Positions 46,986-47,681 of a DNA stretch of 64,000 nt are shown here, piece by piece (position 1 is the first letter of the stretch; the number at the start of each line of letters is the position of its first letter). The DNA lies in sequence record OR844650. One strand, 5' to 3'. Position numbers and translations under genes: made by a program. Source of the stretch: Escherichia phage ECO103 4-12-1. The notes under the pieces are model-generated. The model saw nothing but the letters and a program-made list of their open reading frames with translations. It ran no database searches and was not told the origin of the DNA.

Positions 46986-47681
46986 TTACACCCACTCTTC
47001 TACACCACCGCGACGCTTAACTAAGTACTTGCCTTCTTCGTTACGTGGACCAAGAATAATACCATCAATGAAACCATGTTCACCATATTCAAGTGCTTCT
47101 TCTGCATTTAACCACAAATCGCGGTCAGCATCTTTTAGTAATTGTTCATGTGATACACCTACAGCTTCTGCAATTTCTTTGGTCAACAATGTATTCAGTG
47201 CATCAGAATGTTGTAGGGAAATCTTCTGGTCTGTAATTAGACCTTGTGTACCAGAACTTACTTGGTGACACATGAAGTATGAGCGTTTACCACCTAAACG
47301 GAAACCTTTAGTCCCAATAACAGATTGTGTATAGCAACCCATTGATGCTGCATAGCCCATTACTACAGTGCGAATTGGCGAAATACAAGACTTAGCAACA
47401 TCTGCAATACCCAAACCTGCGTGTACTGAACCACCCGGTGAACTAATGTAGAATGTAATAGGGGAATCACCTTGTGAGTCTAACCATACCAATTGTTGTT
47501 TGATGATATGTGCCATTTGATCATTGAAATCAGTATCAAGGAAAATGATACGGTCTTGCATCATACGAGATGCTAGATCATATGTACGTTCTGAACCATT
47601 AACTTTCTCAACTACGTAAGGAATAGAAATGTTACGTACTTCGCCATTAGCATAACCACCAAACATGAATTGTTCAACCAT
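46986..47681 (-). CDS. clpP: ATP-dependent Clp protease proteolytic subunit
   Basis: SSPGGSVHAGLGI, catalytic Ser in GYAASMG and His in MCHQ; ATG confirmed. Confidence 0.8.
   Translation of the reverse strand: MVEQFMFGGYANGEVRNISIPYVVEKVNGSERTYDLASRMMQDRIIFLDTDFNDQMAHIIKQQLVWLDSQGDSPITFYISSPGGSVHAGLGIADVAKSCISPIRTVVMGYAASMGCYTQSVIGTKGFRLGGKRSYFMCHQVSSGTQGLITDQKISLQHSDALNTLLTKEIAEAVGVSHEQLLKDADRDLWLNAEEALEYGEHGFIDGIILGPRNEEGKYLVKRRGGVEEWV

Follow-up and report, generated by a model that had tools for sequence, protein, structure and literature searches.

An Asteriusvirus ClpP that probably forms the core of a phage ClpA-ClpP protease with partners encoded far away in the genome

Clp genes of phages have already been annotated in public records and mentioned in the literature. 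Clp gene sets of jumbo phages have been described for Atu_ph07 (Attai 2018, PMC6102473) and in a further study (Iyer 2021, PMC7824862). In the retrieved parts of both papers, the genes are listed singly and host-directed or assembly roles are proposed for them; the same passages hold neither the docking loop nor the shared pocket changes nor the three-gene co-occurrence that we describe below. In the literature that we have searched, no experimental characterization or expression timing of phage Clp genes was found. The genes analyzed here belong to the same gene families and the same phage clade as the Clp gene sets of Atu_ph07 and of the RaK2-like phages. Phage-borne stand-alone proteasome homologues have also been described (PPH, AAH, and CPH; Fuchs 2021, PMC8665760), and PPH and AAH are precedents for one of the proteins studied here.

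The stretch of DNA under analysis, hereafter the window, comprises 64,000 nucleotides of Escherichia phage ECO103 4-12-1 (record OR844650) and belongs to an Asteriusvirus jumbo coliphage of the PBECO4/121Q/G17 group, in which genomes have a size of roughly 350 kb. The whole window matched positions 238755-306143 of G17 at about 98% identity, and its positions 42000-48000 were 99.9% identical to G17 and Sharanji. Over the first 25 kb of the window, the best matches had 99.2% identity. Three peptidase-fold ORFs, all on the minus strand, were located in this region (Table 1). They had been described from the letters of the window as an intact ClpP, an HslV-like Ntn peptidase, and a secreted ClpP-like protein, and this descriptive content was borne out. 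The same holds for the statement that the window carries no ClpX/ClpA-like gene: when the window was searched by tblastn with E. coli ClpX, ClpA, ClpB, HslU, and Lon, the best E value was only about 1.

Table 1. Peptidase-fold genes and neighboring candidate elements in the window
Feature	Coordinates	Strand	Details
HslV-like proteasome-family Ntn peptidase	42177..42770	-	197 aa from ATG
86-aa ORF	42767..43027	-	about three hydrophobic transmembrane-like segments
Predicted ClpP-fold protein	43098..43706	-	202 aa from annotated ATG at 43706
Sigma-70-like promoter match	43833..43861	-	TTGACA, 17-nt spacer, TATGAT, TG; 11/12
Terminator-like hairpin	46954..46976	-	10-bp stem; starts 10 nt past clpP stop
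ClpP, peptidase S14	46986..47681	-	231 aa; Pfam, PDB matches, triad
Sigma-70-like promoter match	47716..47743	-	TGGACA, 16-nt spacer, TATAAT, extended TG; 11/12

The Pfam CLP_protease profile matched ClpP with 141.3 bits (gathering score 20.2, E = 4e-41) over profile positions 2-179 of 182, and the solved bacterial ClpPs in the PDB matched it at about 1e-36. The alignment with E. coli ClpP, to which it is about 34-36% identical, placed Ser113/His139/Asp188 on E. coli Ser97/His122/Asp171, bearing out the original prediction of a complete ClpP with its catalytic Ser and His. The triad was also found at the canonical positions in K64-1, GAP32, XaC1, and PA5oct. Judged from these residues, the phage ClpP looks active. 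The N-terminal P-x-V-V-E...ER.YD motif region is retained, and the protein is extended relative to E. coli ClpP by roughly 19 aa at the N-terminus and roughly 25 aa at the C-terminus. The NCBIfam ClpP models matched at about 2e-45, under their equivalog cut-offs (TIGR00493, 151.6 vs 308.6 bits; PRK00277, 155.2 vs 249 bits). By these scores, the phage ClpP is a divergent member of the ClpP family and no equivalog of the cellular ClpP.

The neighbors of clpP encode a ligase, a phosphoesterase, a dCMP deaminase, Sir2, Nudix, and PhoH proteins. Promoter-like sites in the region were at chance level overall (40 found vs 41.3 in shuffles), and we have singled out the two intergenic 11/12 matches alone. 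One of them lies immediately ahead of clpP, within a 64-bp gap, and its position and match quality are suggestive of a clpP promoter; the other, in the intergenic stretch upstream of the ClpP-like gene, is likewise suggestive of a promoter. The hairpin past the clpP stop is suggestive of a terminator, with 5 terminator-like sites in the region vs 2.2 +/- 1.4 in shuffles.

We have found a candidate motor for ClpP outside the window. G17_00342 (G17 record 201964..204252) lies upstream of the window, at distances of about 34.5 kb from it and about 85 kb from clpP. It encodes a ClpA-type ATPase of 762 aa, and the gene was present in 18/18 distinct Asteriusvirus genomes matching the window. Its Pfam domains are AAA, AAA_lid_9, AAA_2, and ClpB_D2-small. 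The top NCBIfam match was the ClpA equivalog TIGR02639 (E = 1e-226, positions 5-732 of 734), whose score of 754.7 bits lies under the equivalog threshold (993.15) but still exceeds those of the ClpB (634) and ClpV (548) models. E. coli ClpA aligned in a single HSP over residues 22-732 (43% identity), and E. coli ClpB aligned in two HSPs that skipped the middle domain (residues 402-531). Both AAA+ rings are intact, with Walker A/B motifs GEAGVGKT/FIDEIH and GPSGTGKT/LLLDEIEKA, pore loops KYR and GYVG, and the sensor-2 motif, and the ClpB-type middle domain is absent. At the ClpP-docking position, SIGM of G17_00342 aligned with SIGL of E. coli ClpA (residues 616-619). The tripeptide, I-G-L in E. 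coli ClpA (617-619), is thus IGM in G17, and it reads LGM in GAP32, VGF in XaC1, and IGF in PA5oct; K64-1 was left out of this comparison because of a frameshift in its GenBank ClpA gene. A search of the G17 genome with E. coli ClpX returned no ClpX. As a separate observation, the "ATPase" of phAPEC6 virions (orthologue of G17_00360) gave a marginal AAA match (E = 4e-4).

A ClpS-domain protein, G17_00259, was also identified outside the window. It matched Pfam ClpS with 24.7 bits (gathering score 23), and the same profile matched 12/12 members of its family (best 3e-10). With the family profile, the significant structure matches were all ClpS, including that of E. coli (E = 7e-9); the NCBIfam equivalog cut-off for ClpS was not reached. 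As determined by tblastn and from the protein database, the ClpS-like protein occurs in 70 phage records, every one from host genera of the RaK2-like clade, and a scan of viral contigs for relatives returned one identical locus only. Unlike in E. coli ClpS, the phage core is flanked by phage-specific regions, one of about 65 aa on the N-terminal side and one of about 40 aa on the C-terminal side, and its putative N-degron pocket is altered. For the latter comparison we have taken Asn34, Asp35, Thr38, Met40, and His66 to be the E. coli ClpS pocket, and Glu79 and Lys84 to be its contacts to the ClpA N-domain. On these presumed lists, the phage protein retains Asp35, Thr38, and Glu79, the pocket changes being Asn34 to Asp, Met40 to Ala, and His66 to Asn, and the change at a ClpA-contact position being Lys84 to Phe.

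With a ClpA-type motor and a ClpS-type adaptor encoded elsewhere in the genome, ClpP is no orphan. The original prediction, in which a ClpP with no phage partner may borrow host unfoldases, therefore fails: the genome-wide search for AAA+ partners uncovered a phage ClpA-type protein beyond the window, and the genus encodes the ClpS-domain adaptor as well. For the genome of the window itself, the presence of ClpA and ClpS is inferred from all its sequenced relatives. The ClpP, ClpA, and ClpS genes were found together throughout the clade of RaK2-like jumbo phages of enterobacteria, and both ClpA and ClpP matches were obtained in K64-1, GAP32, CBB, Munch, fHe-Yen9-04, XaC1, and PA5oct, at gene distances of 13 kb to about 250 kb. 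We do not claim a shared ancestry of the PA5oct ClpA/ClpP with those of the enterobacterial phages, the PA5oct proteins being no closer to G17 than those of E. coli are.

Based on these sequence data, we consider it likely that an ATP-dependent ClpA-ClpP protease is encoded by the phage, with ClpP as its proteolytic core and the partners of ClpP distant in the genome. In infected cells, a phage ClpA hexamer would dock on a phage ClpP tetradecamer and would feed it unfolded substrates, which the ClpS-like protein would select. Such a protease would degrade host or phage proteins inside the cell, or act in protein quality control, instead of maturing the capsid. The likeness to the ClpAPS system of E. 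coli extends to the ClpP fold with its Ser-His-Asp triad, to the ClpS core domain, and to the double-ring AAA+ architecture of ClpA without a middle domain, with KYR/GYVG pore loops and an I-G-[L/M] tripeptide. In contrast to E. coli, with its neighboring clpS and clpA, the phage has its clp genes spread across about 170 kb with no operon, and all three phage proteins fall under the NCBIfam equivalog cut-offs.

We have then compared the docking pocket of ClpP, using eight E. coli residues that we take to be the contacts of the IGF/IGL loops (mature numbering). On this assumed list, the phage ClpP keeps Tyr62 and Met92 and has conservative changes at three positions (Ile90 to Val, Phe112 to Leu, and Leu189 to Ile); the remaining 3/8 are non-hydrophobic, with Thr for Tyr60, Ser for Phe82, and Gly for Leu114. 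These last three substitutions, together with the N- and C-terminal extensions, set the phage protein apart from E. coli ClpP. Two of the three positions are replaced in all phage ClpPs examined, Tyr60 by Thr, Val, or Ser, and Leu114 by Gly, Thr, or Ser. The shared substitutions suggest a phage-specific ClpA-ClpP interface; three non-hydrophobic residues could also mean a docking that is weakened rather than re-tuned.

The pocket bears on whether the phage ClpP pairs with host ClpX and/or ClpA, or assembles with host ClpP into mixed tetradecamers, and so redirects the host machinery, perhaps besides its work with the phage ClpA. The 34-36% identity to E. coli ClpP, the retained N-terminal motif region, and the preserved part of the pocket would be compatible with host partners, and ClpX is missing from the phage genome. 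It has also been put forward, in the part of the source retrieved, that a phage ClpS may feed host ClpAP (Iyer 2021, PMC7824862). However, the phage encodes a ClpA-type partner in which the docking tripeptide is conserved, this partner accompanies ClpP across the clade, and the Tyr60 and Leu114 replacements recur in every phage ClpP that we have compared. We thus regard pairing with host components as unlikely.

Even less probable, in our view, is that the phage ClpA functions on its own, be it as chaperone, disaggregase, or translocase (in virion assembly, for instance), with ClpP being a separate ATP-independent peptidase. The dispersal of the clp genes, the DnaJ gene adjoining the ClpA gene of PA5oct, and the partly non-hydrophobic pocket of ClpP all fit such a division of labor, and translocase or assembly roles for ClpA/ClpX are proposed in the retrieved passages of Iyer 2021 (PMC7824862). 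Against it, the docking tripeptide is conserved in 4/4 phage ClpAs examined, and ClpA, ClpP, and ClpS occur together across the clade. The only known role of this tripeptide is ClpP binding. ClpB-type disaggregases, moreover, have no docking loop and carry the middle domain that is absent from G17_00342.

The public labels of clpP point to another function, that of a head-maturation (prohead) protease. The top PHROG match of ClpP was phrog_94, "head maturation protease" (E = 5e-44), Pharokka-style annotation follows the same label, and the RefSeq records of PBECO4, JP4, E9.1, and RaK2 carry it. The RefSeq ClpP of PA5oct (gp212) is noted "ESI-MS/MS," which may mean detection in virion preparations. 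The phage ClpP does share the ClpP fold and the Ser/His residues with the ClpP-related prohead proteases (PHROG_94, NF045542). It differs from them in that clpP lies outside the head module, no scaffold domain is fused to the protein, and a separate S77 protease is present. The latter, G17_00323, is a Peptidase_S77 (T4 gp21-type, E = 1e-20) whose gene has the scaffold and portal genes on either side. In G17, the head module occupies 166-172 kb and clpP lies at 289 kb, about 120 kb away and among metabolic genes. The gp21-like gp227c was detected in phAPEC6 virions, and the ClpP of that phage (gp353c) is absent from the list. Model scores agreed with this: NF045542, "ClpP-related head maturation protease," gave 51.3 bits vs a cut-off of 120, whereas the cellular ClpP models scored about 152-155 bits. 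A head-maturation function of ClpP is accordingly very improbable, and the RefSeq/PHROG label is probably a label-transfer error. The use of ClpP in virion maturation, which had been offered as one option for the window's peptidases, becomes unlikely for the same reasons, given the Peptidase_S77 in the head module and a phAPEC6 virion list with no Clp-named protein.

The two other peptidase-fold proteins gave a different picture. Pfam returned no match for the HslV-like protein alone, and single-sequence PDB searches with this and the ClpP-like protein gave noise only, so family profiles were needed for the PDB matches of both. The HslV-like family profile matched PDB HslV over the full length (E = 8e-8), and PHROG_1040, "peptidase HslV family," matched the protein at E = 6e-25. 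An AlphaFold2 model (pLDDT 92.1) had HslV, BPH, and 20S beta subunits as its top Foldseek matches (HslV, E = 3e-10; BPH, TM 0.75-0.80). The ORF extends to a GTG at 42839, and the ATG start yields M-T-C-I-I. M1, T2, D18, K34, G146, and G148 were invariant in 37 HslV-like sequences, down to 27% identity, and the mature protein would carry Thr1, Asp17, Lys33, and the GSG motif. The Ntn fold, these residues, and the lack of a propeptide beyond the initiator Met are shared with HslV and BPH. In contrast to HslV, the protein scored far under the HslV equivalog cut-off (TIGR03692, 18.9 vs 157.75 bits; PRK05456, 20 vs 137 bits) and no HslU is encoded by the phage. Since all four flanking helices are predicted in the model, it is not of the roughly 140-aa PPH type. 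In the Asteriusvirus version, about 20 residues are inserted.

That the HslV-like protein has no phage partner, as originally proposed, holds for the whole G17 genome: in tblastn, E. coli HslU matched nothing but the D2-ring part of the ClpA-like gene. Like BPH, the phage protein is without a known unfoldase. Homologues in T5-like, Aeromonas, and other phages had no adjacent ATPase except PhoH, whose gene is one or two genes distant in contigs; in the Aeromonas phage the distance is about 2 kb. A missing HslU partner is the normal state in this phage family. Judged by its intact catalytic residues and predicted fold, the HslV-like protein belongs to a widespread family of stand-alone proteasome homologues in phages.

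The ClpP-like protein, which would have 207 aa if started from the TTG at 43721, scored 17.4 bits with Pfam CLP_protease, under the gathering score of 20.2; its family profile matched PDB ClpP at E = 0.004. The invariant Ser101 and His126 of the family aligned with the catalytic Ser and His of ClpP, the third triad residue being ambiguous as Glu184/Asp185 vary in the family, and a TSPGGDFD motif is invariant. The best 50 Foldseek matches of its model were all ClpP (E about 1e-6); the model has a mean pLDDT of 67 and is confident for residues 30-120 only, with residues 127-153 below 50. At the N-terminus, a basic M-K-R is followed by a hydrophobic helix (residues 4-22), and the motif F-P-A-S-A|G is invariant; from this signal-peptide-like sequence the protein may be secreted, as originally described. 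With an invariant Glu7 inside the hydrophobic stretch, the segment may instead be a membrane anchor that stays uncleaved. The ClpP core behind an N-terminal hydrophobic segment resembles NfeD/STOPP and SppA. Pfam NfeD1b_N matched weakly and the E values of the NfeD/STOPP/SppA families were all 0.05 or worse; unlike their Ser-Lys dyad, Ser101/His126 align with the ClpP triad positions. The protein is probably a Ser/His ClpP-fold peptidase, exported or membrane-anchored. If exported to the periplasm, it is not expected to have an ATPase partner.

The ClpP-like and HslV-like genes flank the 86-aa ORF, whose stop overlaps the HslV-like ATG (ATGA). The same arrangement was found in a 50%-identical relative (locus L018), and Asteriusvirus shares the adjacency with two distant lineages of metagenomic phages; phage EPS7 also has a small membrane protein just ahead of its HslV-like gene. 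The adjacency was absent from EPS7, an Aeromonas phage, and another locus (L020). Between the two ClpP-like proteins, BLASTP gave barely any similarity (E = 0.1). With three loci lacking the arrangement and so little likeness of the ClpP-like proteins, we have rejected a conserved three-gene module and describe the arrangement as recurrent only.

Returning to the ClpA-ClpP protease, a more speculative reading, which we hold to be possible but doubtful on the present sequences, is that it is a private orthogonal machine insulated from host ClpX, ClpA, and ClpP, with the ClpS-core adaptor targeting host proteins. Under this reading, a co-evolved interface would be made up of the I-G-M loop, the C-terminal extension of ClpP, and the substitutions at Tyr60, Phe82, and Leu114. 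The ClpS-core adaptor, through its phage-specific domains at both ends, would then steer the protease to, for example, defense or transcription factors early in infection.

These results have a corrective value, in that ClpP is no orphan and its "head maturation protease" label is probably wrong; the "HslV" label, in turn, masks a stand-alone family of phage proteasome homologues. If these phages indeed encode a ClpAPS that is self-contained and independent of the host, they would be a tractable case of a regulated proteolysis system supplied by a virus, and the phage set would be a possible source of orthogonal ClpAP pairs.

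The three ORFs of the original prediction, coding for a ClpP, an HslV-like and a ClpP-like protein, were all found at their predicted positions on the minus strand. ClpP matched solved bacterial ClpPs at ~1e-36, and its Ser113, His139 and Asp188 aligned with the E. coli triad positions, in agreement with the complete ClpP with catalytic Ser/His that had been predicted.

Genes discussed, with positions in the window or, where marked G17, in the genome of Escherichia phage vB_EcoM_G17
Feature	Position	Strand	Length	Remarks
ClpP	46986..47681	minus	231 aa	Pfam CLP_protease, E=4e-41
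125-aa ORF	43932..44309	plus	125 aa	Sole plus-strand gene here
ClpP-like	43098..43706 (from annotated ATG)	minus		Pfam 17.4 vs 20.2 bits, below threshold
86-aa ORF	42767..43027	minus	86 aa	Predicted membrane segments; ATGA overlap with HslV-like start
HslV-like	42177..42770	minus		PHROG_1040 "peptidase HslV family"
64-aa ORF	41955..42149	minus	64 aa	Predicted membrane segments; other flank of HslV-like gene
Sir2	41193..41951	minus		
Nudt16-like Nudix hydrolase	40645..41196	minus		
Small protein	40315..40635	minus		Orthologue annotated cREC_REC
G17_00342	G17 201964..204252		762 aa	Annotated Clp ATPase
G17_00259, ClpS-like	G17 119899..120444		181 aa	Pfam ClpS 24.7 vs 23 bits, narrowly above threshold

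The phages matching the window were all jumbo phages of the genus Asteriusvirus (genomes ~350 kb). The entire window corresponded to positions 238755-306143 of vB_EcoM_G17 (G17) at ~98% identity, and its segment 42000-48000 matched G17 and Sharanji at 99.9% identity and BF17, PBECO4, phAPEC6 and others at 99.3-99.8%. The best matches of the first 25 kb were SP27 and phAPEC6 (99.2%), so that the window derives from a sister isolate. In the tail-fibre region, ~3.4 kb of G17 (258102-261480, in G17_00414) was missing at window ~19339-19348; the alignments of several other relatives were split in two at the same spot, which therefore is a variable host-range locus.

As predicted, no ClpX/ClpA-like gene was present in the window, where tblastn with E. 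coli ClpX, ClpA, ClpB, HslU and Lon found no unfoldase. The proposal that ClpP is an orphan did not stand, since the search of a complete genome for an AAA+ partner, run on G17, found the ClpA-type G17_00342, whose gene lies upstream, ~34.5 kb from the first base of the window and ~85 kb from clpP. The G17 genome held no further ClpX-, HslU- or Lon-like gene, the queries matching only the D2 ring of G17_00342. A ClpA-type gene was detected in 18 of the 18 distinct Asteriusvirus genomes matching the window, and from these sequenced relatives we infer ClpA and ClpS in the window's own genome.

The domain architecture of G17_00342 (Pfam AAA, AAA_lid_9, AAA_2 and ClpB_D2-small) was accompanied by a full-length match to the ClpA equivalog, its top NCBIfam model (E=1e-226), with a score under the curated cut-off (754.7 vs 993 bits). 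E. coli ClpA aligned in one piece (43% identity, residues 22-732), and E. coli ClpB in two pieces that skipped the middle domain. G17_00342 retains the two Walker A/B pairs, the pore loops KYR and GYVG, and sensor-2 in intact form.

The "SIGL" of E. coli ClpA, whose I-G-L (residues 617-619) is the ClpP-docking loop, aligned with "SIGM" in G17_00342; the docking tripeptide was LGM in GAP32, VGF in XaC1 and IGF in PA5oct. In the docking pocket (E. coli numbering), Tyr60 was replaced by Thr/Val/Ser and Leu114 by Gly/Thr/Ser in every phage ClpP examined, and the ClpPs of the enterobacterial clade and XaC1 had in common a C-terminal extension of ~25 residues. The shared pocket changes and extension suggest, at the sequence level, a phage-specific ClpA-ClpP interface.

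Matches to both ClpA-type and ClpP proteins were obtained for K64-1, GAP32, CBB, Munch, fHe-Yen9-04, XaC1 and PA5oct; for RaK2, ClpP came from the protein search and ClpA from the DNA search. The two genes were adjacent in none of these phages (53.6 and 149.7 kb in GAP32, 180.4 and 193.6 kb in PA5oct). Identity to G17 ClpA was 62.5% for GAP32, 53.5% for XaC1, 42.3% for PA5oct and 41.6% for E. coli, the corresponding values for the window ClpP being 67.2, 45.3, 32.5 and 34.1%. The PA5oct proteins are thus no closer than those of E. coli, and this pair may therefore have been acquired independently. In the Klebsiella phage K64-1 record (AB897757; locus L021, 61..2348), the ClpA-type gene looked frameshifted, with tblastn matches in two pieces and a late start of the annotated CDS, which points to a pseudogene or else to an error in sequencing.

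A ClpS-like adaptor was also encoded in G17. Alone, G17_00259 matched the PDB weakly (E=0.17), whereas a profile of the 12 family members found ClpS structures as its only significant matches (E=7e-9), and 12 of 12 members matched Pfam ClpS. The ClpS core (~residues 66-140) was flanked on both sides by conserved phage-specific regions. Of the E. coli ClpS residues presumed to contact the N-degron or ClpA, Asp35, Thr38 and Glu79 were retained, and Asn34, Met40, His66 and Lys84 were replaced by Asp, Ala, Asn and Phe, respectively. The gene occurred in 70 phage records, whose host genera were all those of the RaK2-like clade. On its flanks (G17 119282..120961) are genes for an IF3 homologue and for a protein with a KTSC domain that is annotated "DnaJ-like"; a DnaJ gene adjoins the ClpA gene in PA5oct, and G17 encodes two GroES/Cpn10-like proteins, these genes forming a scattered protein-folding and turnover set.

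RefSeq and Pharokka-style records (PBECO4, JP4, E9.1, RaK2, PA5oct) name this ClpP a "head maturation protease", because PHROG_94 bears that label, and the PA5oct RefSeq entry carries the tag "ESI-MS/MS", which would favour such a role. However, the head module has a separate protease: G17_00323, a Peptidase_S77 of the T4 gp21 type (E=1e-20), lies between the scaffold and portal genes, and its orthologue gp227c is present in the phAPEC6 virion proteome. That proteome lacks ClpP (gp353c), the HslV-like gp345c and the ClpP-like gp346c, and lists no Clp-named protein. Moreover, clpP sits among metabolic genes (DNA ligase, phosphoesterase, dCMP deaminase, Sir2, Nudix, PhoH), and the NCBIfam "ClpP-related head maturation protease" model gave 51 bits (cut-off 120) vs ~152-155 bits for cellular ClpP models. 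Hence, head maturation is probably not the role of the window ClpP, and the label is probably a transfer error from PHROG_94.

Downstream of clpP, an RNA/DNA repair set (48548..63997; G17 290682-306143) comprised a DNA ligase, a calcineurin-like phosphoesterase, a PrpA-like phosphatase, polynucleotide kinase, RNA ligase A and a weak PTH2-like protein. This content fits a non-structural, early or middle region. Near-consensus sigma-70-like sites (11/12 with extended TG) were found in the intergenic gaps directly preceding clpP and the ClpP-like gene, and a hairpin 3' of the clpP stop codon. Promoter-like matches across the region did not exceed chance in total, and the sites therefore hint at a possible independent transcription by host RNA polymerase.

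The ClpP-like protein had been predicted to be a secreted ClpP relative. A ClpP-type fold was suggested by the structural search, with ClpPs making up 50 of the 50 best matches of a model that was confident at residues 30-120 only. TSPGGDFD, Ser101 and His126 were invariant in its small family, the consensus positions of the latter two aligning with the catalytic Ser/His of ClpP in the profile alignment. The N-terminus (M-K-R, a hydrophobic helix and an invariant F-P-A-S-A|G) resembles a signal peptide of the Sec type or else a membrane anchor. If exported, the protein cannot use an ATPase, and the lack of a partner is then expected.

In Asteriusvirus the ClpP-like gene, the 86-aa ORF (~three transmembrane segments) and the HslV-like gene follow in this order. 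A small membrane protein likewise precedes the HslV-like gene of phage EPS7. Two distant metagenomic phage lineages had a ClpP-fold gene before the HslV-like gene, but without a signal peptide, and none was found there in EPS7, an Aeromonas phage or locus L020; the pairing is recurrent, not universal. Between the ClpP-like and dCMP deaminase genes, amid early/metabolic genes, the 125-aa ORF corresponds to its phAPEC6 orthologue gp347, a 14-kDa virion protein (75% peptide coverage). At 40315..41951, the adjacent genes for Sir2, the Nudix hydrolase and the small protein with a cREC_REC-annotated orthologue are followed by a PIN_4-PhoH fusion, the PhoH protein being in the phAPEC6 virion proteome; these genes may form an NAD+/nucleotide-signal counter-defence cluster.

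The HslV-like protein had no Pfam match. Met1, Thr2, Cys3, Asp18, Lys34, Gly146 and Gly148 were invariant among 37 family sequences (down to 27% identity). Numbered without the initiator Met, these include Thr1, Asp17, Lys33 and the GSG motif, which Fuchs 2021 (PMC8665760) gives as the catalytic residues of Ntn hydrolases of the proteasome family. The family profile matched HslV over its full length (E=8e-8), and the AlphaFold2 model (pLDDT 92.1, pTM 0.88) matched HslV (E=3e-10), BPH (TM 0.75-0.80) and 20S beta subunits, upholding the predicted Ntn peptidase. The protein fell far under the HslV equivalog cut-off and was therefore classed, on sequence grounds, as a putative proteasome-like Ntn peptidase rather than HslV. 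The ~140-aa PPH type was ruled out, four of four flanking helices being predicted in the model.

Its 195 phage records were mostly T5-like Epseptimaviruses (~110 kb), the remainder being Aeromonas and Vibrio phages, Geobacillus E3 and XacN1, usually in early/nucleotide-metabolism regions and often near PhoH and dCMP deaminase genes. No unfoldase gene adjoined the homologue loci examined, and G17 has no HslU-like gene, in line with the predicted lack of a partner. The phage-borne proteasome homologues PPH, AAH and CPH have been described, and BPH has no known unfoldase (Fuchs 2021, PMC8665760). Aeromonas phage 4L372XY carries two successive "peptidase HslV family" genes near PhoH (locus L031, 3001..4397; 184 and 275 aa), which might represent a duplication or a heteromeric form of the phage proteasome homologue.

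ClpP, ClpA-like and ClpS genes are already annotated in the records of 121Q, slurp01, Sharanji and others. According to Attai 2018 (PMC6102473), most RaK2-like phages have a highly conserved ClpA, and Atu_ph07 carries ClpX, ClpA, ClpB, ClpP and ClpS; ClpP, ClpS and ClpA/ClpX of jumbo phages are noted in Iyer 2021 (PMC7824862). A literature phrase search for phage-encoded ClpP turned up no paper, and functional studies were not found either. The observation holds up but is unexceptional, and the orphan-ClpP inference is unsupported. What remains of interest is the possibility that these phages encode an orthogonal ClpAPS machine, one in which the docking interface would be re-tuned and the adaptor novel.
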